Positions 5,581-28,933 of a DNA stretch of 64,000 bases are shown here, piece by piece. The position numbers were made by a program, and so were the translations under genes. The notes under the pieces were generated by a model. The model worked only from the letters and a program-made list of their open reading frames with translations, ran no database searches and had not been told where the DNA came from. The stretch covers positions 2,171 to 66,170 of the forward strand of contig WRFY01000124.1 in assembly GCA_009783445.1 (NCBI GenBank), read 5' to 3'. The stretch comes from Candidatus Azobacteroides sp. (GTDB lineage: Bacteria; Bacteroidota; Bacteroidia; Bacteroidales; Azobacteroidaceae). Each line of letters starts with the position of its first letter. The first letter of the stretch is position 1.

Positions 5581-5704
5581 TCTTATAGTTTTTAAGTACT
5601 TCTCTATAATTTGTTTTGGGGGGCAAAGTTAGTAAAATAATCATAAATAAAAAACATTCTTTCTATTTTCCCTGAACCAAGATATTAAATGATAAGACAA
5701 CACA

Positions 5705-5739
5705 AAAATAAGTGCGGACTTGTAGTCCGCACTTATTTT
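5705..5739 (-). terminator. Rho-independent terminator closing the RiPP operon and lipoprotein gene
   Basis: Perfect 16-bp stem (AAAATAAGTGCGGACT / AGTCCGCACTTATTTT) with a 3-nt loop. On the minus strand it is followed by TTTTTGTG. Confidence 0.75.
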
Positions 5740-5780
5740 TGCATCAAAAAAATGCTTTTAACACATTTTCTGTAAATCAA

Positions 5781-6431
5781 TCACTTTTCTTCTTTTACAT
5801 TTCCTTCCGCATCCGCTGTAAAATTAAATTTAAGATAAGATATTTCTGTCCCAAGCCCTCCGGATTTAGCTGTCGTTCTTGATCCCTGACGACTTTCAAT
5901 GGTAAAAGAATGAATGATTTTCGACGGATCGGCGTTTACGATAATGTCATACGTTCTTATTCCGGAAAATTCATTTTCTGATTCTTCAACCATTTTTCCC
6001 GCTTTGTTGACATTAGAGGCAATTTTTGAAAAATCAATTTCACTTAATTTCAATACATCTTCGGGCTTAACCGTAGGAGTATCGGTATCATCATCCACGT
6101 ATTTTCCGAGAGTTGATCTTTCTTTTCCTTCGGAATTACTGCCCAAAGTAATGTATTTACATTTTACGGTATTCGAACCGGATTCGAAGTAATAGACTTG
6201 GGCTGATGTTACCGTTTTGGAAAAGTTGTCTCCTGTTCCCGCGGATCCGAGAGAGATTTCGATAATTTTGGCGTCGGAACCGACAAATTTCTCAATCTTT
6301 GAACGCAAATTGTCATCAATGTCTTTTTGGTTAGTAATATCAATTCCGAAAAGACCGCTGCATGAATGCTGTGTCAACGCTGTTGCAACTACAACAGACA
6401 ATAAAAGAATTGTACGCAAATGTTTCTTCAT
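5781..6431 (-). CDS. hypothetical lipoprotein, last gene before the terminator
   Basis: Signal peptide with a lipobox-like Cys (LTQHSCSG). No family recognised. Confidence 0.6.
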   Translation of the reverse strand: MKKHLRTILLLSVVVATALTQHSCSGLFGIDITNQKDIDDNLRSKIEKFVGSDAKIIEISLGSAGTGDNFSKTVTSAQVYYFESGSNTVKCKYITLGSNSEGKERSTLGKYVDDDTDTPTVKPEDVLKLSEIDFSKIASNVNKAGKMVEESENEFSGIRTYDIIVNADPSKIIHSFTIESRQGSRTTAKSGGLGTEISYLKFNFTADAEGNVKEEK

Positions 6432-6547
6432 AACGATAAATTATAATATTCAATAAAGTGCAAATATACAAAATAAAAACGAAGTTCAGCATTTTTCCCA
6501 TGTTAGCCGCCTATTCCGTCCTATTTTTCTCTCTGAATCGCCAGTTT

Positions 6548-7063
6548 TCATCGTTTCAACCATCCAAAAAGGACTTTTAGCAAACGCTCTTTTTTCAACA
6601 AAACAGTGGCGTTTCCCTGCATAGAAGGATAATAAGAAATGATTTTACCGCTGGATAAACGAAGATTGTCTTGCAAATTAACCTTAGCTATCAAATATTT
6701 ACACCCTTCTTTCCTGACAACGACAGAGTCTTTTTTTTCAATCCGACCGAAGAGCTGTCCGTATTTGTTTTTGTTGTAGCCTTCTATTTCAATCATAACA
6801 GATAACCCGAGTTCCATTTTTGACTGTAAGGCAATGGGAATTTCAATTATTGCGCCATAAGCAGAATTTTCCATGGGAACAATGTACGCAGTTGCTTGAA
6901 CAGTTTCGGTGTAGGGGAAGAAGTAACTTCCAATAATCAATAAAGTGAACACAACAAATAAAACAGTAATGCCGCTGCGTACTACCAATGGAGGCATTTT
7001 CCCTATGATCGACCGTACTTTCTCACTTCTTAATTCTATCGAATCCATATTTTCAATTTCCAA
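6548..7063 (-). CDS. short HlyD-family membrane-fusion-like protein lacking the coiled-coil hairpin
   Basis: The N-terminus (ELRSEKVRSIIGKMPPLVVRSGITVLFVV, one TM) is typical of bacteriocin-exporter HlyD partners in Bacteroidota. It is only 171 aa, and its start overlaps the ABC gene stop by 11 nt. Confidence 0.6.
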   Translation of the reverse strand: MEIENMDSIELRSEKVRSIIGKMPPLVVRSGITVLFVVFTLLIIGSYFFPYTETVQATAYIVPMENSAYGAIIEIPIALQSKMELGLSVMIEIEGYNKNKYGQLFGRIEKKDSVVVRKEGCKYLIAKVNLQDNLRLSSGKIISYYPSMQGNATVLLKKERLLKVLFGWLKR

Positions 7064-9293
7064 GTTCCAACTGATTCTTAACTAAATAATAATAAGCTCC
7101 TTTACTTTTTATTAATTCCTCATGAGTGCCGATCTCTATTATCTCTCCTTTGTCTAATACAACTATCTGATCGGCATTTTTTACCGTACTTAACCGGTGG
7201 GCCACTACCACTACTGTTCGTCCCTGATAAAATGCATTCAGATTTTCAATAATCATTTTTTCATTATTAGCATCCAAAGCATTAGTTGCCTCATCCAGAA
7301 AGATAAATTGAGGATTGCGATAGACGACCCGTGCAATCAGAATGCGTTGTTTTTGCCCATAGCTCAATCCCTGTCCTTCCTGACCAATAATGGTATTGTA
7401 TTTAAGGGGCAGTTTTTCAATATGATCTTTAATATTTGCAATCGTTACCGCATTTTGCAGTCGTTCTAAATCAATATCTTCATCGTTTACTGCCACATTG
7501 CGAGCGATGGATTCGGAAAAAATATAGCCATCCTGCATCACCACTCCACATTGCTTCCTCCACCAGTGAATATCGATGTCCTGCAAATTCTTATCCGCTA
7601 TGTTTATTTGCCCTTCGGTAGGCGGATAGTACCCTAAAAGCAGTTTAATAAGTGTTGTTTTTCCACTTCCGCTTGCCCCGACAATAGCAGTTACTTTTCC
7701 TTTAGGTAGAGTAAGATTAATGTTATTCAATGCTTTAGGAGAATAAGGTCCTTCATATTGAAAAGCGAGATTGCTTATATGAATATCTTCGCCCTGATAC
7801 AACTCCAAAGCGTCTTTCTCCGCATCTTCTTCATTTTTTTTGACATGTATCTCACTGATACGTTCCAAACTGATGCTTACATCCTGCCATTGGTAAACAA
7901 AGTTAACTAACTGTTCTACAGGACTATTCAATTGTCCGATAATATATTGTACCGAAAGCATCATCCCCAGTGTAAGTTGTCCGTGGATGACCGATGTAGC
8001 CGCCAGAATAGTGATGACAATATTTTTCAGTTCATTGATGGCCATAGCTCCTGCTTCCTGTGTCTGTTGTAACGAGAGCGTATCAAGATTGACTTTGAAC
8101 AAATCGGCCTGCACATCTTCCCATTCCCAACGTTTGCGTTGCTCGCACCCTTGCAGCTTAATCTCCTGCATCCCATTAATCAACTGGTATACCTTACTTC
8201 GATTTTTTCCCTCCTGTTCAAAAACTCGGTAATCGAGCATTCGCCTGTGCTTCAGGGAAAGGAGTATCCATACGGCATAAAGAACCGTGCCAATGAAAAA
8301 CACCAGAAAGATTCGCAAATCGTACAATAATAAAACAATGCCAAAGATTAGCAAACTGAAAAACGAAAAGAGGACATTGAGGCTTTGCGCTGTGAGGAAA
8401 CGCTCCACCCGGTTATGATCTTCGATGCGCTGAAGCAAATCGCCCAACAGTTTGGTATCGAAAAAGCTCATCGGGAGCTTCATCAACTTGATAAAGAAAT
8501 CGGAAATAAGTGAAATATTAATACGGGCGCTGATGTGCAGCAAGATACGACGCCGAATAAAATCAACTGCAGTATGTCCGAAGAGTAACATTAACTGTGC
8601 CAGCAAGATAAGATAGATAAAGCTGATATTTTGGTTGGCAATTCCCGTATCTACAATGGCCTGCGTAAGGAAAGGGAAAAAGAGCTGCAACAGACTACCC
8701 AACAATAACCCCAACAGAAGCTGTCCGAAAAGCTGACGATAAGGTAAGAAATAATTGCTCAAGAAGCGAAAACGATTACGAGTAATAATCTCTCCTTCCT
8801 GTCGATAAAAGGCTTCGGTAGGCTGTAATATCAATGCGACTCCTTTCTCTTCTCCACATGATCGCGTACTAATCCAATTATCACAAAACTCTTGCTCACT
8901 GTACTGCAACAAGCCTTTACCCGGATCGGCGACTTTAACTACATATTCTGCCATTGCAGACTTGACCCGTAATCTCCATTTCTTTTTGGAAATTTCATAT
9001 ACCACTACAAAGTGATTCTGCTGCCAATGAACGATGCAAGGCAGCGGAGCTTTTTCTGTTAATTGTGTAAAAGTAAATCTACCACCCACCGTTCGAAAAC
9101 CGATTTCTTCGGCTGCTTCGCTTATGCCAAGCATGGATACGCCTTCGCGGGAAAGATGCGATTTTTTCCGCAAACCTTCCAACGAATAGCGGCGACCATA
9201 ATAGGCCGCGACCATGCGCAGGCAGGTGGGTCCGCAATCCATGACATCGAGCTGGTGGAAAACAGGGAAGTTATTCATGGAAAAATTTCTCAT
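7053..9293 (-). CDS. peptidase C39 domain-containing ABC transporter (peptide cleavage/export permease-ATPase)
   Basis: N-terminal C39 motif QLDVMDCGPTCLRMV, a six-TM ABC membrane domain, Walker A GASGSGKTT, signature LSYGQKQR and Walker B FIFLDEATNALD. Confidence 0.9.
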   Translation of the reverse strand: MRNFSMNNFPVFHQLDVMDCGPTCLRMVAAYYGRRYSLEGLRKKSHLSREGVSMLGISEAAEEIGFRTVGGRFTFTQLTEKAPLPCIVHWQQNHFVVVYEISKKKWRLRVKSAMAEYVVKVADPGKGLLQYSEQEFCDNWISTRSCGEEKGVALILQPTEAFYRQEGEIITRNRFRFLSNYFLPYRQLFGQLLLGLLLGSLLQLFFPFLTQAIVDTGIANQNISFIYLILLAQLMLLFGHTAVDFIRRRILLHISARINISLISDFFIKLMKLPMSFFDTKLLGDLLQRIEDHNRVERFLTAQSLNVLFSFFSLLIFGIVLLLYDLRIFLVFFIGTVLYAVWILLSLKHRRMLDYRVFEQEGKNRSKVYQLINGMQEIKLQGCEQRKRWEWEDVQADLFKVNLDTLSLQQTQEAGAMAINELKNIVITILAATSVIHGQLTLGMMLSVQYIIGQLNSPVEQLVNFVYQWQDVSISLERISEIHVKKNEEDAEKDALELYQGEDIHISNLAFQYEGPYSPKALNNINLTLPKGKVTAIVGASGSGKTTLIKLLLGYYPPTEGQINIADKNLQDIDIHWWRKQCGVVMQDGYIFSESIARNVAVNDEDIDLERLQNAVTIANIKDHIEKLPLKYNTIIGQEGQGLSYGQKQRILIARVVYRNPQFIFLDEATNALDANNEKMIIENLNAFYQGRTVVVVAHRLSTVKNADQIVVLDKGEIIEIGTHEELIKSKGAYYYLVKNQLELGN

Positions 9294-9308
9294 ATTCTCA
9301 TTTTTGTT

Positions 9309-11666
9309 TCACAAACGATTTATATCGTCCAATGCCGCATTCGCTCCTCGGTATTGCTTCTTGTAATTATTGAACTGGTAACGAATGGTGAGAAGCAAAG
9401 CGCGTGTTTCGTATTTTGTCATTTTTGTATAGGAAACGGTATTGACTCGCACATCTATCCGATTATTTATCCAGTTGAATAAATCAGTTACTTGCAAATT
9501 AGCCAATAGTTTTTTATTGAAAAAATATTTTCGCAATCCGATCTCAATCGATTTCATCTCGTTCGTCTCTATTGCATAGTTATTCATTTTTCCTTGATAA
9601 TTCAGATTCAAGGAAAAAATATATTTTCGAGGAAGAACAAATTCATTATTGATGCTGCAAAAAAATACCGTTCGATTTCGGCTTTGCTCTTTCCCCAGAT
9701 AAGACAGATTGAAGAAAGGTTGGCTCACGCCGACTGTCACTTGCGTTTGACCGAATTTGTATGGAACATCGCCTGTTAAAAGGAAATCTAATTTTTGATA
9801 TTTCGGGTAATTGACGTAGGTCATAACTGTTTGGGACGAATTTTGTTCCGAATCTTCAATGGTAAATCCAATTGGATGATTTACGTAGGTATAATCCAAT
9901 CGAAAATCCAATATTCGATAATGCAGATGGTAATCGAATAGATACATATCTTCCGAATTGAGCAGGGGATTTCCTCTTTCCCGCAGGAAACGATTCACGT
10001 AGTAGTCTTCGCTACTGAGCAGAGAAAATGCAGGACGTTGAATCTTTCGTGCCATTTCCAATCCCATTTGCGTGTTTCCAACTATTTGAGAAATGGAAAG
10101 ACTCGGATAGAATCCGCTATAATTTCGATCTATTTCTACTTGGCGAGCGCTGTCGATAGTCGTTAAAGCCTTTGTCCATTCGTACCGCATCCCTATTTGA
10201 ATTGCCAGTTTACCGAATTGTCTACTATAATTTGCAAAACCAGCGACTTTATTTTCTTTATTTGTGTAAAAGTTGTCAGCTATATATTGTTCCGGATTTA
10301 ACAGAAAACCTGAACCTTTCACTTGATTACATTCTCCGCCAAATTCCAAGCTTGATAGTTCGTTCAAACGGTATTCCAAAGTAAATTTTCCTGCATATAG
10401 ATCGTAATTCGAACGACTGTTAAGCGTCAGTTCTCTGTTTTCTACTGATGAGGACTCCATTATTTCCTGTCCGGTTTTATTATGGGTTTTCAAGTAATCC
10501 ACATCCAAACGCAAACTAAACGATTTTCCATAATCTCCCTTATAAAAAGCGTTTAGCAGATGTTTTTCAGGCTGGCTTTTTGCCTTAAAAAGGGTCGTGA
10601 TTTGGTCGTAATTTTGAGCGTTAGCCCAAACGGTCTGAATTCCGGAAGAATTGATTTTTTCGTTTCCAAAAGTATACTGATATTGGCATCCAACAGCCTG
10701 CCGAGTCGTGACAGACCAATCGATTCCAGACGTAAAAACAGTTGATAAATCTTTATGTTTCTGAGGCATTTCCATTTTTTGCAACCAAGTTGTATCCGTA
10801 TAAACAACATAATCGGTTACTGTATTCCATCGCGTTTTTTCCCGAGTATGATTGCAGGAAGCAAAGAAAACAAAATTAGGGAGTGCATAGCTTAATTCGA
10901 AATCCTCCATGCTACTGAAATATTTCCGTTTCTCAACTTGCTGAGAGATTTGAACGCTCCAACCATCTTCCCCGCTTCGTTTGGTTTTGATCAGTAAAAC
11001 AGCTCGCCCTTCTGCATCGTATTTCGCACCCGGATTTGTAATTAACTCAATACTAATAATATTAGTTGAAGATAGACGATTAAGCTCGGTTTTATCGTAC
11101 AATTTTCGGTTGTTGATGTAAACAATCGGCGTTCCTTTGCCAAAAACAGTTATTTCATCTTCATTTATTGTAACGCCCGGAATTCGTTTGATAACATCGT
11201 TGGCATTGCCCACAGAGGCTAACAAAGAAGAATTGACATGAACTATCCAGTTGTTTCCTATTTTGGAAAAAACGGGTTTAGGCGTTGTTACTACAATTTC
11301 GCTCAACAAATAGTTATCTTCTGTCAGCATAATTTCGCCTAATTCGATCGACTGTTGTTGTATGATTGTTTGCAGGGTGATTGTCTGGTAACCCAAACAA
11401 GCAATTTGCACAAGGAGTTCGCCTTGCTGAACATTTTCAAACGAAAATTCACCAGTTTCTGAACAAACAGTTCCATTAATAAAAGAAGAATCTGCTGCAT
11501 GGAATAAAATTACATTGGCATATTCTATTGGGATTTGTTTTTCGTTTACAACTTTGCCCGAAAGAGTTTGCGCATGAATCGCCATTTTGTTTCCAATGAA
11601 TAATAACAGCAGAATTTGCAGAAAATAAAATTGTTGTTTGCATACGAAATGATTAGTCATTTGCAT
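9309..11666 (-). CDS. outer-membrane beta-barrel protein, TonB-dependent-receptor-like, with an N-terminal carboxypeptidase-regulatory-like domain
   Basis: Signal peptide, a CarboxypepD_reg-like beta-sandwich (LSGKVVNEKQIPIEYANVIL), a plug-like segment (IKRIPGVTINEDEITVFGKG) and a long beta-strand-rich C-terminus ending in an aromatic-rich region. Its start overlaps the rSAM gene stop by 14 nt. Confidence 0.75.
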   Translation of the reverse strand: MQMTNHFVCKQQFYFLQILLLLFIGNKMAIHAQTLSGKVVNEKQIPIEYANVILFHAADSSFINGTVCSETGEFSFENVQQGELLVQIACLGYQTITLQTIIQQQSIELGEIMLTEDNYLLSEIVVTTPKPVFSKIGNNWIVHVNSSLLASVGNANDVIKRIPGVTINEDEITVFGKGTPIVYINNRKLYDKTELNRLSSTNIISIELITNPGAKYDAEGRAVLLIKTKRSGEDGWSVQISQQVEKRKYFSSMEDFELSYALPNFVFFASCNHTREKTRWNTVTDYVVYTDTTWLQKMEMPQKHKDLSTVFTSGIDWSVTTRQAVGCQYQYTFGNEKINSSGIQTVWANAQNYDQITTLFKAKSQPEKHLLNAFYKGDYGKSFSLRLDVDYLKTHNKTGQEIMESSSVENRELTLNSRSNYDLYAGKFTLEYRLNELSSLEFGGECNQVKGSGFLLNPEQYIADNFYTNKENKVAGFANYSRQFGKLAIQIGMRYEWTKALTTIDSARQVEIDRNYSGFYPSLSISQIVGNTQMGLEMARKIQRPAFSLLSSEDYYVNRFLRERGNPLLNSEDMYLFDYHLHYRILDFRLDYTYVNHPIGFTIEDSEQNSSQTVMTYVNYPKYQKLDFLLTGDVPYKFGQTQVTVGVSQPFFNLSYLGKEQSRNRTVFFCSINNEFVLPRKYIFSLNLNYQGKMNNYAIETNEMKSIEIGLRKYFFNKKLLANLQVTDLFNWINNRIDVRVNTVSYTKMTKYETRALLLTIRYQFNNYKKQYRGANAALDDINRL

Positions 11667-12990
11667 AATTAAGTATGTGTGCTAATGATTTTTTTGAATC
11701 ATAGAATTTATCCATTATATGATAAATACTTTTTTCTATTTCATTACAAGGACATAATTTATTCAAATTAGTTAAATTTTTTGAGGAGAATAATCTATAG
11801 CTACAAATTCCATAGCAAACAGGAAGCAGGTTACAATCTAAACACTTCTTATTATCAAAAGTAGCTTTATTTAGTTTCCTATACAACAAGTGGTCGTTCC
11901 ATTCTATTGTTCCATCTTTTGTTAAAACGCCATCCTCTATTTCCTTTTCAAAATTGACTGCATGACATTTGAATACTCTACCATCATAATTAATTATAGA
12001 TTGATAATATTTGTCGGCCGGACAAGCCAATGTATTCGTATGAATTATGGAATGAGTTCTTATTTCAGTGTTGAATCCTGCATTCTCAAATATTAACAAC
12101 TTCTGTCCAATTTCATCAAAGGATACTCTTTCTTGATCTTGGTCTATTTGCTTAATTAATACCATTATTTTTTTTCGAATATGCAAAGGAAATGATTCGA
12201 TAATATTCGTAATGGAATCAAAATATTCCTTGGTAAAATTAATTCTAAGAATTAATGTTTTAGGATTCAAATTTTCAGCTAATAATATAATGCTATTAAC
12301 AATTCTGTCATATGAATCGGTTGTATTTTTTTGATATCGAATCCTATTATGTATTTCTTTAGGCCCATTCAAAGTTATTTGAATGGATTGCATATTAATA
12401 TCTCTAAACAATGGCAACATTTTTTCATTTAAAAAATATCCGTTTGTTGTGATTTGAGATTCGAGAAATACATTGTTTAAGTCACAAAATTCTTTTGTTT
12501 TTTCGGAAATTGGTTTTAATATATTTTCATAACATAATAACGGTTCTCCTCCATACCAATTTAAGAAAAATGCAGATTTATTTTTTACTGTATTATTTAT
12601 GAATTTGATTGTTGCATTAACAGTTTCTTTATTCATTATGCCTTTACACCTATCTTCATAACAATACCAACAATTAAAATTGCAATTTAATGTAGGAAGA
12701 ATCATAAGCCAATATGAATCATTATTAAAAACTTCTTTCCGATTATGAAAAAGTAAAATATTTTTTATATTATTGTCAATTTCTATATCATTAATTATTC
12801 CTAATTTATGCATTGTGCTAAAAAAAACAGGTTCATCTGTTTTCGTCTTATTTAAGTTTTCTTTGTAAGATATTAGTTTATTGTACTTGTTATCTTCTAT
12901 CTTGAATAACATTTTCTTAAACAAATTAACCCCGACCACTATGCTATTATAGCTTTTAAAGTAATTATATTTACTTAATATATATCCCAT
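11653..12990 (-). CDS. radical SAM / SPASM-domain peptide maturase
   Basis: CX3CX2C cluster LNCNFNCWYC (encoded at about 12661-12690). C-terminal SPASM motifs C-x13-G-x4-C (CPADKYYQSIINYDGRVFKC) and CX2CX5CX3C (CLDCNLLPVCYGIC). ATG at 12990 is preferred over the track's TTG at 12996. Confidence 0.88.
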   Translation of the reverse strand: MGYILSKYNYFKSYNSIVVGVNLFKKMLFKIEDNKYNKLISYKENLNKTKTDEPVFFSTMHKLGIINDIEIDNNIKNILLFHNRKEVFNNDSYWLMILPTLNCNFNCWYCYEDRCKGIMNKETVNATIKFINNTVKNKSAFFLNWYGGEPLLCYENILKPISEKTKEFCDLNNVFLESQITTNGYFLNEKMLPLFRDINMQSIQITLNGPKEIHNRIRYQKNTTDSYDRIVNSIILLAENLNPKTLILRINFTKEYFDSITNIIESFPLHIRKKIMVLIKQIDQDQERVSFDEIGQKLLIFENAGFNTEIRTHSIIHTNTLACPADKYYQSIINYDGRVFKCHAVNFEKEIEDGVLTKDGTIEWNDHLLYRKLNKATFDNKKCLDCNLLPVCYGICSYRLFSSKNLTNLNKLCPCNEIEKSIYHIMDKFYDSKKSLAHILNYAND

Positions 12991-13007
12991 CTTCAACTTT
13001 TTATATT

Positions 13008-13098
13008 AGGAGCTGCTTCTAAATAAATCATCTATAATTTAATTTCATTTTAAAAGAAAATGAACTATATTTTATAAGATTAATTTCTGGCAGCTCCT
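13008..13098 (-). promoter_or_regulatory. extended imperfect stem-loop between the precursor gene and the maturase gene
   Basis: GC-rich 9-bp basal stem (AGGAGCTGC 13008-13016 / GCAGCTCCT 13090-13098). A roughly 14-bp AT-rich middle stem follows, then an apical 8-bp stem TTCATTTT/AAAATGAA. No U-run follows on the minus strand. Confidence 0.45.
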
Positions 13099-13211
13099 TA
13101 GTTATAAGATATTATACCTACTCATTTACAAAATGATACTTTAACATGATTTATCATTCTGAATCTAAATAAGTTTTAGAATATGAAATCATAATTGATC
13201 ATCAATCAGCA

Positions 13212-13382
13212 TTAACAATAAGTGCCTGATTTTGAACCACAATAGACTCCTGATTTACCGACAGCAGAATCATTAATCAATAAGGCAGACGCATCAACTC
13301 CTCCTATAAGTTGTTTTTTTTCTTCCTTTGTCAATACAATTTTCTTACAATTTTTCAAATTATTTATTTTATTTGTTTTCAT
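13212..13382 (-). CDS. RiPP/bacteriocin precursor peptide with a double-glycine leader (56 aa); not in the ORF track
   Basis: Hand translation of the minus strand gives MKTNKINNLKNCKKIVLTKEEKKQLIGG|VDASALLINDSAVGKSGVYCGSKSGTYC*. The leader is Lys-rich and ends in LIGG. It lies directly upstream of the rSAM/SPASM and C39-ABC genes. Confidence 0.8.
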   Translation of the reverse strand: MKTNKINNLKNCKKIVLTKEEKKQLIGGVDASALLINDSAVGKSGVYCGSKSGTYC

Positions 13383-13762
13383 TTCTCGATAAATTTTTAT
13401 GTTAATAATAATTTTATTGGCGAAACTTTCGCATTCATCGCGTCCAACAAGTTACCCAACCTTGTTGGGAACTTTGGAAAATCAATAATATTTCGTACCT
13501 TTACGGCGCCTTCTTGTGATTTTGCATTTATTATTTCGATTGTTATGTTGAATATAAACCTCGCAGGGAGGCTATTTTTGTTTGCAAATTAAGGGGGCGA
13601 GCCTTGCTTTGCCATAAACGACAAATTCGTTCGTTTACATTTGCAAAAATAGAAATAAAAAATGGAACAAAATCCAAATGTTTGAAATAGTTTGTGAGCG
13701 TACCGATTTCGTCCATCAGCGTAGCATTTTTATCCTGCCAATGTCATAATATGAATGATAAA

Positions 13763-14083
13763 TTATTTTTGGTTGAACAATAATTTCAATTTCTGCGTGT
13801 TCCTGACCGAAAAACAGAAAACTTTGTCTCCGGATAGTTTAACCTCTTTTCTCTTAAGATCAATGGACTTTATGTGATGCGTATTAATAATACATTGCCG
13901 GCTTATTTGGATAAAACAGTCCGGTAATTCCGAAAGTATTTTCCGTAATGATTTTACACAATGGAAAGAAGGTTCGTTTTCCATATAAAATGTACATAAG
14001 TAATCATTAACCTCAACAGCCAATAGCGACTCCATTTGAATAACACGTAATTCATTTCCATTTTTTACAGTGAAACAATTCAT
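13763..14083 (-). CDS. stand-alone LytTR-domain DNA-binding protein with no receiver domain
   Basis: 106 aa. The pattern (...LLAVEVNDYLCTFYM...KSLRKILSELP..FIQISRQCIINTHHIKSID...V.LSGDKVF.FS) matches LytTR domain spacing. Confidence 0.75.
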   Translation of the reverse strand: MNCFTVKNGNELRVIQMESLLAVEVNDYLCTFYMENEPSFHCVKSLRKILSELPDCFIQISRQCIINTHHIKSIDLKRKEVKLSGDKVFCFSVRNTQKLKLLFNQK

Positions 14084-14160
14084 AAATCCAATGTAAATGT
14101 TACTTCATTCATTCCCTGACTGAAGAGAGTTAAAAATGCAGAAGCGTGGGAATTATTCGT

Positions 14161-14309
14161 TTATCTAATTTGAGGTACGACCAAGCACCGCGCTAAAATA
14201 AACAGTTACCCCACGCTAAGCAGATATATACGTGAGGTATATATGCTAAGCATAGCGTTTATTCTGTTTATCCCTTAGCTAAAAAATTGGTCGTTCTCAA
14301 ATTAAGGAT
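14161..14309. repeat. long imperfect inverted repeat forming a hairpin of about 150 nt, possibly a structured leader RNA or a MITE-like element
   Basis: Outer arms are TTATCTAATTTGAGGTACGACCAA and TTGGTCGTTCTCAAATTAAGGATAA. Middle arms are GCTAAAATAAACAG and CTGTTTATcccTTAGC. Inner arms are GCTAAGCagATATATAC and GTATATATGCTAAGC around the loop GTGAG. Confidence 0.6.
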
Positions 14310-14757
14310 AAAGCAAAACGCTTCAATATGTTAATTCTTAATATTCATTTATTATTATCAAGAATTGTACGACAAACTTACATGAAAATTTGAAGATTTC
14401 CAAATGTATCCGGCAGCGATTCAGAAAGAAAAATTTGAAAAATAAAATACTGAAAATAAAAAGTTTGTAAAATTTGAAAAATAAAAAAAATTGCAGAAGT
14501 TAAGCAGCTTATTTTATTAATTTACTAATTTTCAGCACATTATACAATTTTCACAAGCTAAGAGCTTTTTATAAACCGACTAACATACTCCATCTTAATT
14601 TTTATAAAAAAACTAATAATCAATGAAATATGAAGATAAATTATCTAAAAAATGATGGAGTCGAGGTTTTTAGTAATTTAAATGTTGACCTGATACTCGT
14701 AGGATAGGTAAATCTCTCGCAAGAACAAGTTTTACACTTAATCTGACCTGTAAATTC

Positions 14758-15774
14758 TCAACTATTCTTTCTGTAAAGTGGAAAAAAATCTTTATTACTG
14801 TTTTTCCTTTTTTGCTCAAGACTTAAAGCCTCATAAATTTCCTTATTATGAATGTATTTCCATGCTTTGAATCGGAAACGGATGTCGGAAAAACGCGATT
14901 TGAAGTCGAAAAGCGAATCGTTTTTGCCATCTCGTCCCCCGCCCAAATGCAGGCAATGCATTTTCCGTCTTATTCCTTCTTTTCTCGCCTGATCCAGTAT
15001 CAGTTTGAGCGGACTGAATGATAGAAAATCGTTTCGCGTAGCATTCAAATGCGCTTGCATGATTCCATTGCAAAATGTGCAAAGCGAACCGCCAATCACT
15101 TCTCCCTTGTAAGCGGCTAAGAAAATGCAAGCATCCGCTTTTTTCAAAATGGCATTGAAGTACTCTGCAGGAAAATAATAAAATGGAGTCGCTTTGACTC
15201 GATCCATGTTTTCCCTATATATTTGGATAAAAGCGTTTACATCACTTTGATTGGAAGCCTTAAATACAGTTACTCCTTTGTTTTTCAAATAGTTGATTCT
15301 ATTTTTCAGCGAACGGGCATATTGTTTTTTCTGTTCAGATTCGGGCAAATCCAAATCTATCCCCACGGTCAGATTCATATCTTCGACCTCGCCCAAGCCG
15401 TCCAGCAATTGTTCTTGATTTTCCCATAAAGGATGCAAACGAGAAAAAACGCTTACGATTCGTTGGGCATCGAAATAATCTTTCAATGTTTCGTGAAACA
15501 AGCGAATATCGTTAAGAGTCGGGCGTTCGTTTTGCGACAAAGGGCCGACATAACCATACACGGAAGTGATGTCCTGCCACTCCGTTCCTTCAATTTTCCG
15601 TACAATGACAGGAAGTGCAAAAGAAGCGGTATCGTTCCGAAAATGCAGTAACAAAGCCTTTCCCGATAAATCCAATTGCTGATAAAAAGCCAAATGATAA
15701 AAATCGTAGGCATACATAGAGCGAATAATGTCGTTCCATTTTCTTTCGTTGTCCGCAGTAATTATTTCCAGCAT
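14758..15774 (-). CDS. FemAB-family / GNAT-fold acyl(aminoacyl)transferase-like protein
   Basis: 338 aa with a two-lobed GNAT-like pattern. It is translationally coupled to the upstream sugar-phosphate transferase (TAATG overlap at 15774). The family assignment is made from memory of similar Bacteroidales proteins. Confidence 0.55.
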   Translation of the reverse strand: MLEIITADNERKWNDIIRSMYAYDFYHLAFYQQLDLSGKALLLHFRNDTASFALPVIVRKIEGTEWQDITSVYGYVGPLSQNERPTLNDIRLFHETLKDYFDAQRIVSVFSRLHPLWENQEQLLDGLGEVEDMNLTVGIDLDLPESEQKKQYARSLKNRINYLKNKGVTVFKASNQSDVNAFIQIYRENMDRVKATPFYYFPAEYFNAILKKADACIFLAAYKGEVIGGSLCTFCNGIMQAHLNATRNDFLSFSPLKLILDQARKEGIRRKMHCLHLGGGRDGKNDSLFDFKSRFSDIRFRFKAWKYIHNKEIYEALSLEQKRKNSNKDFFPLYRKNS

Positions 15775-28337: not shown

Positions 28338-28933
28338 AGTTTTAATAGGCATTAGTCTTTTAAGGCAAAAAGATTGTTTTAGGTTATCGGCTACAAAGAT
28401 GTAGGTTTTTTTAATATCCACCAAAAAAAAAAAGATATTCTATAACATATTTTTAAGGTTTTTGAGATTTATTCCGATAAGCGTAAATTTTAAAAAAGAA
28501 TACTTGAAAAAGAGGATTTTGAGTGGAAAGCCAAAATGAACAGGTTGAGGGAATTAGTTATCGACAGATTTCTATATATTTTTTCAGAGAATCTAATTAT
28601 AGTGACGTTCTACAAAATATTCCGCTATAATTAATTAATAGCCAAATTATTATATTATTTTTGATTGAATGCTTTATTATGGCATTTAGTATCATAAAAA
28701 AACATTACATTTTGATTATCAACCACATAGATTAATACTGTAAATTATTAGTTTATAGCAGATTAAACGAACATGCTTTTTAAAACGCCAAAAAAAAATT
28801 TATCCTTTCGTTCAAATACGGCGACAAATGGAATTGATAAGGGATATTGCGCCTTTTTCATCCCGCATATTTGTAAATCAGAAAATTTTCATGTAAGTTT
28901 GCATGAATTCAGAAATAATGTAAACAAAACAGA

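Follow-up and report, generated by a model that had tools for sequence, protein, structure and literature searches.

Gene content of the locus

The locus described here lies in a window of 64,000 nucleotides (the whole stretch of DNA analysed) from contig WRFY01000124.1 of a metagenome-assembled genome (MAG) named 'Candidatus Azobacteroides sp.' (GCA_009783445.1). Its minus strand carries seven open reading frames (ORFs) that encode, in order of transcription, a LytTR regulator, a small precursor peptide, a radical S-adenosylmethionine (rSAM) enzyme with a SPASM domain, an outer-membrane barrel, a peptidase-containing ATP-binding cassette (ABC) transporter (PCAT) of the C39 type, a short HlyD-like membrane fusion protein (MFP), and a lipoprotein-like protein, followed by a terminator-like hairpin (Table 1). 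The ORF list and the Pfam and NCBIfam matches agree, in coordinates and domains, with the seven ORFs of a preliminary description made from the sequence alone. Its reading of the locus as an rSAM/SPASM cluster for a peptide that is made by the ribosome and modified after translation (RiPP), with a double-glycine (GG) precursor and a C39-ABC exporter, is likewise supported, and the locus is likely to be a biosynthetic operon for an rSAM-modified RiPP in a termite-gut Bacteroidales genome. By comparison of related loci, the conserved core of the system comprises the precursor, the rSAM enzyme, the barrel (which resembles TonB-dependent transporters), the C39-ABC exporter, and the MFP.

The proteins of the locus correspond to NCBI entries MCL1938904-MCL1938909, the precursor being annotated in the source genome as a hypothetical protein, and an identical 72-kb contig (k141_849847) is present in ENA assembly ERZ27257293. 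The public gene call of this contig uses ATG starts and reports a 445-aa rSAM enzyme, a 783-aa barrel, and a 166-aa MFP. The gene overlaps first described depend on the choice of start codon: the rSAM and barrel genes do overlap, by 14 nt as originally given or by 8 nt with the public starts, and the 11-nt overlap of the MFP and ABC genes turns into a 4-nt gap.

Related loci (about 115) were collected from species-representative genomes, metagenomes, and exact-protein look-ups. The patterns of a metagenome scan based on alignment A1 were overly general, and mainly distant rSAM loci came back, with only L025-L027 at least 42% identical. The closest clade, hereafter the G-x-Y-C clade after a motif of its precursors, is defined by rSAM enzymes at least 53% identical and has eight independent loci: the window, L020, L022, L024, L105, L107, L113, and L114. 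Several relatives carry termite-gut-associated taxon names, such as Candidatus Azobacteroides, Candidatus Symbiothrix, and Dysgonomonas termitidis, an association read from the names only. Gene content, motifs, folds, gene order, and precursor conservation are direct observations on this material.

The GC content is uneven along the operon, with 29% in the precursor gene, 26% in the rSAM gene, 37.5% in the barrel gene, and 41.5% in the ABC gene. The same gradient recurs in every clade locus (L020, L022, L024, L105, and L107), with 26-29% for the rSAM, 32-37% for the barrel, and 41-49% for the ABC genes, and is thus a property of the gene families or modules and no sign of recent transfer into the Azobacteroides genome. 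The GC-poor rSAM and precursor genes had at first hinted at recent horizontal transfer, a reading rejected on these grounds.

Table 1. Coordinates of genes and candidate signals, numbered from the first nucleotide of the window.
Feature	Position	Strand	Size or remark
Candidate promoter upstream of LytTR	14373-14404	minus	same TTTG...TAnnTTTG pattern
LytTR ORF	13763-14083	minus	106 aa
Candidate Bacteroidetes-type promoter (TTTG ... TAnnTTTG)	13644-13678	minus	~262 nt upstream of precursor start codon
Precursor peptide ORF	13212-13382	minus	56 aa
rSAM/SPASM ORF	11653-12996	minus	445/447 aa; 445 aa from ATG at 12990
Outer-membrane barrel ORF	9309-11666	minus	783/785 aa; PF14905
C39-ABC (PCAT) ORF	7053-9293	minus	746 aa
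Short HlyD-like/MFP ORF	6548-7063	minus	166/171 aa
Lipoprotein-like ORF	5781-6431	minus	216 aa
Intrinsic-terminator-like hairpin	5700-5744	minus	20 pairs, 7 G-C; T-rich tail (terminator scan)

The precursor family and its radical SAM enzyme

The precursor is divided into a leader, M1-G28 (13299-13382), which ends in LTKEEKKQLIGG, and a core, V29-C56 (13215-13298), with the sequence VDASALLINDSAVGKSGVYCGSKSGTYC. The core holds two KSGxYC repeats, encoded by a DNA direct repeat (13215-13232 and 13239-13256), and ends in GTYC. Homologous GG-leader peptides are found upstream of the rSAM genes of L020, L022, L024, L108, L113, and L114, and the peptide P0251 is homologous as well. Wherever a locus of the closest clade extends upstream of its rSAM gene, such a peptide is encoded immediately ahead of that gene; L105, L106, and L107 end at the 5' end of the rSAM gene, and these loci therefore yield no precursors. 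Because of this conservation in every close relative with upstream sequence, the 56-aa ORF can be regarded as the real precursor that had been proposed from the sequence alone, and not as a chance ORF.

The leaders of the clade share the pattern ...LT.EEKK.L.GG, and residues L17, T18, E21, G27, and G28 are invariant in the precursor alignment (A3). The cores read ...SCGKSGLYCGNKSGTYC in L113/P0249, ...ADKGGLYCSSKSGIYC in L108, ...ADKGGTFCSDKTGTYC in P0251, ...SDGTYCSQSGLYCPQ in L024, ...KIGHTCGKSSATYC in L114, ...GTGSLYCQCSAGIGG in L020, and ...EDGLYKKTKKSGLYCNK in L022. Each has at least one C-terminal G-x-Y-C motif, and most have two. Two deviations count against the chemistry proposed below: the first motif of L022 has Lys in the place of Cys (DGLYKK), and L114 has Thr in the place of Tyr (GHTC).

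The G-x-Y-C precursor family is small in the sequence collections searched. Only the peptide itself was returned from a set of 5.8 billion sequences, and phmmer, run exhaustively on 1.84 billion representative proteins, added two other peptide clusters only; this size is a lower bound, as small ORFs are under-called. A further phmmer match, P0250, was discarded as a spurious repeat protein, and no second GG-leader peptide was found in the window. The sister clades (L001, L026, and L116), with rSAM enzymes 46-52% identical, have different cores of the type CSCT[FY]Y...GCxCxC, and of 19 genome loci further away, at least 12 have GG-leader peptides with other Cys-rich cores.

The enzyme next to this precursor matches PF04055 (E = 5.7e-13) and the SPASM model TIGR04085 (38.1 bits, cut-off 27). 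The CX3CX2C motif (C103/C107/C110), the GGEPLL motif, and the residues of the seven-Cys SPASM motif, CX9-15GX4C ... CX2CX5CX3C ... C (C323, G337, C342, C383, C386, C392, and C396) are invariant in 26 homologues, which confirms the complete set of cysteines described earlier. In the predicted model, with a predicted local distance difference test score (pLDDT) of 87, residues 1-90 form strands and helices that resemble a RiPP recognition element (RRE), in keeping with a cognate precursor encoded upstream. The nearest solved structure is CteB, both by sequence (5WGG, E = 9e-14) and by fold (5WHY/5WGG, E = 2e-15 to 6e-15 over 407-424 columns, N-terminal domain included), so that the modelled strand-and-helix domain would correspond to the peptide-recognition element of CteB.

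The best curated families for the rSAM enzyme are Clo7bot (157 bits), CefB (143), TIGR04463 (142), the geopeptide maturase (115), and PapB (NF047865, 99). All of them act on Cys-containing peptides and have equivalog cut-offs of 340-600, and the enzyme stays far below them (157 against 600 for Clo7bot, 143 against 600 for CefB, 99 against 340 for PapB), as it does for the SCIFF model TIGR03974 (69.5 bits, cut-off 425). Taken with the fold, these scores place the protein among the peptide-modifying SPASM enzymes, in a subfamily that has not been curated. An enzyme with a target other than a peptide, for example an anaerobic sulfatase maturase (anSME) beside a spurious small ORF, would also account for the anSME structures among the fold matches and for a weak match to TIGR03942. 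The latter scores 67.3 bits against a cut-off of 349, no sulfatase is found among the neighbouring genes, and the small ORF is conserved with its GG leader beside homologous rSAM genes and a GG-specific C39 exporter; this explanation, which the preliminary description had named as the one to check, is therefore highly improbable.

Regarding the chemistry, the leading candidate, although held with some doubt, is a Cys thioether of the sactionine or ranthionine type, as formed by CteB. The conserved Cys residues of the core are compatible with a Cys-to-carbon thioether. A concrete option, which is speculation, would be a Cys-to-Gly alpha-thioether at the G-x-Y-C motif, raised because, among core residues, the Gly at position -3 is second only to Cys in conservation; Cys-Gly sactionines have a precedent in StsB (PMC10288494). 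Weighing against a thioether, the enzyme falls under every curated family cut-off, and ItfD, the one characterised Bacteroidales enzyme from a similar cluster, makes a C-C bond (PMC11002830). The main alternative, of lower probability, would place the cross-link on the conserved Tyr as a C-C or C-O bond (a cyclophane, an ether, or an Itf-like bond), with the adjacent Cys used otherwise. This would agree with the aromatic residue (Phe in P0251, otherwise Tyr) that almost every motif has before its Cys, with the first L022 motif, where Tyr is kept and Lys replaces Cys, and with the Ile-Trp C-C bond that ItfD, from a Bacteroides cluster of similar design, is described as forming. The match lists of the enzyme also include DynA, YhhB, XyeB, and SuiB, SPASM enzymes of comparable relatedness that form, between them, cyclophanes, ethers, and C-C bonds. 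Against a Tyr-centred product, the best sequence and fold matches are the thioether synthase CteB and families acting on Cys-rich peptides, Cys is the most conserved core residue in close and distant clades alike, and several peptides end in ...YC, which makes a three-residue cyclophane running C-terminally from the last Tyr impossible in them.

Export and outer-membrane transport

The exporter has the three domains expected of a C39-peptidase ABC transporter (PF03412, E = 1.5e-29; PF00664; PF00005), as first described. Its sequence contains the C39 residues Gln14, Cys20, and His94, together with the Walker A GASGSGKT, the signature LSYGQ, and the Walker B FLDE; an intact peptidase domain with canonical ATPase motifs fits cleavage after Gly27-Gly28 coupled to export. 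Of the curated models, TIGR03796 scores 444 bits and TIGR01193 387 (cut-off 524), both below the equivalog or subfamily cut-offs. C39-ABC genes are present at 16 of 19 related genome loci.

The protein downstream of the exporter, described before as a 171-aa 'mini-HlyD', is indeed HlyD-like and can be specified further as an MFP with a large internal gap. It consists of an N-terminal IELRSEKVR motif (cytoplasmic IELRSE), a transmembrane helix, and a C-terminal beta-barrel domain, and its alignment with the 434-aa MFP of L022 covers residues 2-57 and 322-428 of the latter. About 263 internal residues, from which the lipoyl and alpha-hairpin domains would be built, are thus missing. TIGR01843 matches at 20.9 bits (cut-off 208) and only over profile positions 322-409, and Pfam and NCBIfam gave no further clue even at E <= 10. 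Short MFPs of 126-177 aa also occur at L002 (Bacteroides fluxus), L020, L034/35, L052, and L086, and since similar forms recur in at least five other lineages, the short MFP is probably functional. Full-length or near-full-length MFPs are found at L001, L022, L026, and L107. A tie between the short MFP and the presence of the barrel was considered and rejected, as short forms occur at loci with no detectable barrel and full-length forms beside barrels.

Two export genes of the clade appear split: the fusion protein of L105 into ORFs of 270 and 167 aa (5676-6976), and the PCAT of L020 into ORFs of 373 and 287 aa (7995-9933). Frameshifts introduced by assembly, or else a decaying export module, would produce this pattern.

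The barrel matches PF14905 (152 bits) and PF13715 (CarboxypepD_reg). Its AlphaFold (AF2) model, built on an alignment of 48 homologues, has a mean pLDDT of 86 and predicts a signal peptide, a beta-sandwich carboxypeptidase-regulatory-like N-terminal domain (residues 31-111), a plug (131-226), and a barrel (233-763). The sequence LSEIVVTT (residues 119-126) lies in the low-confidence linker before the plug (118-126), and the 48 homologues share the consensus LxEVVVT, together with many invariant plug residues; we take this motif to resemble the TonB box found in SusC-type transporters of Bacteroidota. At the top of the Foldseek matches in the PDB stand TonB-dependent transporters alone, among them PirA, Cir (bound to microcin V), PfeA, FepA, PhuR, and BtuB (E ~1e-19, probability 1.00). 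The Pfam Plug model matches weakly (15.5 bits, cut-off 23.9), and a sequence comparison with PDB chains found none. The TonB-dependent-receptor-like barrel of the preliminary description thus stands and, going by the predicted model, is a complete TonB-dependent-transporter fold with N-terminal domain, TonB-box-like motif, plug, and barrel.

At its C terminus, the PF14905 family has a conserved tail of about 20 residues past the last strand (NNYKKKYRGxxAAxDDIxRL) and no usual terminal aromatic residue (window region 9309-9380). The model of the window barrel places a short helix at residues 777-782.

In all eight independent clade loci, the barrel gene follows directly downstream of the rSAM gene. 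It is absent in the sister clades L115, L116, L001, and L026 (rSAM enzymes 46-52% identical, different cores), where a PCAT is found in four out of four and an MFP in L001, L026, and L116, the contig of L115 stopping inside the PCAT gene. Homologues of the barrel accompany differing Bacteroidota rSAM-RiPPs at 10 of 19 related genome loci. Within the clade, the identity of the barrels follows that of the rSAM enzymes (Pearson r = 0.85; 21 pairs, 7 loci) more closely than the identity of the exporters does (r = 0.55; 15 pairs), although these correlations, from 7 loci and non-independent pairs, are descriptive only, which counts against leaning on them. The window and L105 are 86% identical in the rSAM enzyme, 70% in the barrel, and 60% in the exporter, and the exporters of L105 and L107 are 80% identical. 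These contrasts point to a module of precursor, rSAM, and barrel that recombines with PCAT-MFP modules at ~9293-9309.

The barrel would be the cognate outer-membrane partner of the G-x-Y-C peptide family, and peptide-specific, TonB-dependent uptake of the mature peptide, alone or with a cargo, is on balance somewhat favoured as its function. The importer fold, the conserved plug and TonB-box-like motif, an inheritance of the barrel that follows the rSAM enzyme better than that of the exporter, and two clade members with both MFP and barrel speak for this direction: L022 and L107 have a full-length or near-full-length MFP besides the barrel, so that a TolC-type route is plausible there and the barrel would be redundant for export. 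A RiPP taken back by its own TonB-dependent transporter has a precedent in methanobactin and MbnT (PMC9601215). The barrel could instead, with clearly lower probability, be the exit channel of the outer membrane and replace TolC for a PCAT whose MFP has no TolC-docking hairpin. In the window, the MFP is short of those ~263 residues, hairpin included, no TolC gene belongs to the cluster, and a 28-residue peptide needs some way across the outer membrane. For the PF14905/TonB-like proteins, which are enriched in RiPP loci of Bacteroidetes, Makarova et al. predict an export function (PMC8939145), and Fernandez-Cantos et al. treat the outer-membrane protein of such clusters as a third export component (PMC10352776). 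Further points that weigh against uptake are the company of PF14905 barrels with very different Bacteroidota RiPPs, seen at those 10 of 19 genome loci, which fits a generic secretion role, and the fact that the cluster has no genes for a periplasmic binding protein, an inner-membrane importer, or TonB/ExbBD. What speaks against an exit channel is that every structural match of the barrel is an importer, that plug and TonB-box-like motif are strongly conserved in the family, that the sister clades export by PCAT, mostly with an MFP, in the absence of such a barrel, that the barrel coexists with full-length or near-full-length MFPs in L022 and L107, and that short MFPs occur at loci with no detectable barrel (L034/35, L052, and L086).

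With uptake as the preferred direction, the following pathway can be proposed, for which we infer the chemistry, the direction of outer-membrane transport, the operon structure, and the regulation. The 56-aa precursor would be made with a 28-aa GG leader and a 28-aa core ending in two KSGxYC repeats, and the rSAM/SPASM enzyme would dock the leader on its N-terminal RRE-like domain. A 5'-deoxyadenosyl radical, together with the auxiliary Fe-S clusters, would then introduce intramolecular cross-links at the conserved G-x-Y-C motifs. The C39-ABC transporter would cut after Gly-Gly and, with the truncated MFP, pump the 28-residue product over the inner membrane, and the barrel, as its cognate partner, would take the mature peptide (or peptide and cargo) back up in a TonB-dependent manner. 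A locus known from a MAG could be inactive, and the truncated MFP could be a decay product, given the split MFP of L105 and the split PCAT of L020. There is, however, only a small chance that the whole cluster is a non-functional remnant, with a short MFP left by deletion and no mature peptide. The internal deletion of the MFP, the two split genes, and the provenance of the sequence, known from metagenome assemblies only, would be in line with it, but all seven ORFs are intact, as are the catalytic motifs of the rSAM, C39, and ABC domains, the core motif of the precursor is conserved, and short MFPs recur in five or more further lineages, Bacteroides fluxus and contigs from the human gut among them, which argues for a working short form and against a one-off deletion.

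A bolder extension of the uptake reading, which is rather doubtful, would be a 'secrete-and-recapture' function: the peptide would be more than a bacteriocin lost once secreted, as the PCAT would export it in its cross-linked G-x-Y-C form and its own co-inherited TonB-dependent transporter would bring it back in. It would then serve termite-gut Bacteroidales in a scavenging role, as metallophore or carrier of nutrients, or as a signal that is imported. If so, the rSAM-barrel pair would be a peptide/receptor module shuffled between generic exporter modules, and the TonB-dependent transporters in many Bacteroidota RiPP clusters, Itf included, would be uptake receptors and not export ducts. If the answer is uptake, a large number of annotations as 'bacteriocin' in gut Bacteroidota would have to be reconsidered.

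Related systems, regulation, and flanking elements

The Itf cluster of B. thetaiotaomicron was reported by Clark and Seyedsayamdost in 2022 and is described here after two secondary sources. Its characterisation covers the rSAM enzyme ItfD, the YcaO protein ItfB, the PCAT ItfE, and the TonB-dependent transporter ItfF (PMC11002830), and a survey lists it as BGC6 (PMC10352776). By these descriptions, Itf and the window have in common a Bacteroidales SPASM-type rSAM enzyme, a C39-ABC exporter, an in-cluster TonB-dependent transporter, and a small precursor with a conserved C-terminal motif. Itf is described there as differing in its YcaO protein (backbone amidine), in a core that contains Ile-Thr-Phe/Trp, and in the Trp-Ile C-C bond made by its rSAM enzyme. 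The window, on the other hand, has no YcaO domain in any locus ORF, no Trp, a G-x-Y-C core, and a short MFP. The two rSAM enzymes are compared here by these descriptions. The preliminary statement that no Bacteroidales rSAM/GG-leader product has been characterised is thus outdated in general, given Itf (PMC11002830), and holds for the present family as far as found.

With CteB/thermocellin and the ranthipeptide or SCIFF-type maturases (PapB, Clo7bot, CefB, TIGR04463), the window enzyme shares the RRE-like N-terminal domain, the rSAM core, the seven-Cys SPASM motif, and Cys-containing substrates. It differs from them in scores that are 3-6 times under the cut-offs, the Gram-negative host, the GG-leader/PCAT export, and another core motif. 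The 'GG-Bacteroidales' families of TIGRFAMs (TIGR04148 rSAM, TIGR04149 target, TIGR04150 pseudo-rSAM) also pair a Bacteroidota GG-leader peptide with an rSAM enzyme, and the window leader resembles TIGR04149. The membership suggested earlier nevertheless fails in all three features. The precursor reaches 18.2 bits against the TIGR04149 cut-off of 25, and its close relatives P0249 and P0251 gave no match to that model. TIGR04148 is absent among the best 25 of the 44 NCBIfam matches of the rSAM enzyme, all of them below cut-off, the model's inclusion in that release being unconfirmed. Finally, the locus has no further rSAM-like ORF that could be a pseudo-rSAM (TIGR04150) partner.

Methanobactin operons (MbnA, MbnT) are likewise RiPP clusters that encode a dedicated TonB-dependent transporter, shown to re-import the peptide, but they have unrelated enzymes (MbnBC) and a different exporter and belong to Proteobacteria, and nothing in the window points to metal binding. 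Clusters with the same set of parts, rSAM, PCAT, MFP, and outer-membrane protein, have been surveyed in silico in Bacteroidales, in the same phylum as the window (PMC10352776), and the enrichment of PF14905/TonB-like proteins in Bacteroidetes SPASM/graspetide loci, and hence the association of barrel and RiPP, was noted already in PMC8939145. These surveys differ in dealing with human-associated or graspetide loci; this rSAM clade, the G-x-Y-C precursors, and the strict rSAM-barrel adjacency do not figure in them, and export is assumed. The general design of rSAM/SPASM enzyme, GG leader, and PCAT, often with MFP and outer-membrane protein, is therefore already catalogued in Bacteroidota (Haft's TIGRFAMs; PMC8939145; PMC10352776). 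Specialists would not be surprised by the cluster type, whose novelty was first overstated while its core interpretation was right. Judged by sequence and gene order, the locus represents an uncurated new family within a known kind of system, distinguished by the G-x-Y-C precursors, the strict rSAM-barrel linkage, and the short MFP, and no earlier study was found of this peptide family with its always-adjacent TonB-dependent transporter.

rSAM RiPP clusters with a C39-ABC exporter are very common in Bacteroidota, and Itf was the only one found with solved chemistry. A compact family with one precursor, one enzyme, and a short G-x-Y-C motif is a tractable target for rSAM chemistry. The locus also offers a sharp test of export versus uptake by embedded TonB-dependent transporters, as the barrel is linked to one precursor type and missing in the sister clades.

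Two relatives have a different genetic neighbourhood. In L022 (121-8963; GCA_031548005.1, JAVBRK010000015.1; rSAM 57% identical), the rSAM cluster lies directly downstream of a second putative RiPP cluster with genes for the N- and C-terminal parts of a LanB-type dehydratase, thioredoxin-family genes, and TraB/PrgY-type genes. In L116 (1-10171; human gut metagenome ERZ916611; rSAM 49% identical), two precursors of the CSCTYY...GCxCxC type stand in tandem. LanC-like/glycosyltransferase and S41 peptidase genes precede the rSAM gene, and behind it come genes for a 349-aa protein that matches no family and for a glycosyltransferase; this is a more complex RiPP cluster that has no TonB-dependent transporter.

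Coming back to the window, the spacer between the precursor and rSAM genes (12997-13211, minus strand) is structured, with a 9-bp GC-rich stem, AGGAGCUGC/GCAGCUCCU (inverted repeat I5). The RNA of 12985-13215 folds at -49.6 kcal/mol (z = -3.0 against shuffled sequence). Stable folds in the spacer between precursor and enzyme genes are a frequent feature of RiPP operons, and the structure would set the ratio of precursor to enzyme transcript. An Rfam scan of the whole window gave no match. The only strong terminator follows the lipoprotein gene; its presence had been reported correctly, with a stem that spans 17-20 bp (5744-5700, with a T-rich tail) in place of the perfect 16 bp at 5705-5739 first described. 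A transcript from ~13644 to ~5700 is plausible from the signals in the DNA. The promoter pattern of Table 1 occurs 14 times in the window, where chance would give 5.9, and these are matches to a consensus only, from which we infer promoter function.

The LytTR protein (PF04397, E = 2e-12) is a bare DNA-binding domain with no receiver domain. Described before as a part of the system immediately upstream, its gene is indeed adjacent, with an actual gap of 380 nt to the precursor gene and a promoter match in between, and because of this distance and this match it is probably on a separate transcript with its own promoter. No LytTR homologue is found at any related locus; the equivalent place is taken by an HTH_3 gene in L020 and by an unannotated 137-aa ORF in L024, with unrelated helix-turn-helix genes at other loci. 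AgrA-type repeat boxes match 7 times in the window, against 15.9 expected, and none lies within 13383-14760. The link of LytTR to the cluster is one of adjacency alone and unproven. The lipoprotein-like protein gave no Pfam or NCBIfam match even at E <= 10, and its gene, although in the same apparent transcription unit, is found only in the window's own contigs and is not conserved at related loci. From this distribution, the LytTR and lipoprotein genes are probably bystanders and not conserved parts of the system.

The public gene call of the identical contig omits the LytTR ORF and calls instead a 57-aa ORF at 13543-13716, with no homology. This ORF overlaps the candidate promoter and is probably spurious. 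Two near-identical promoter-like 32-mers, TTTGGAAATCTTCAAATTTTCATGTAAGTTTG and TTTGTAAATCAGAAAATTTTCATGTAAGTTTG, lie at 14373-14404 (minus strand), upstream of LytTR, and at 28870-28901 (plus strand), ~14 kb away, and could be a regulatory element used in common. A perfect 18-nt direct repeat, AAAATTTGAAAAATAAAA, is further found at 14430-14447 and 14469-14486, in the AT-rich stretch upstream of LytTR, the copies being 39 nt apart.

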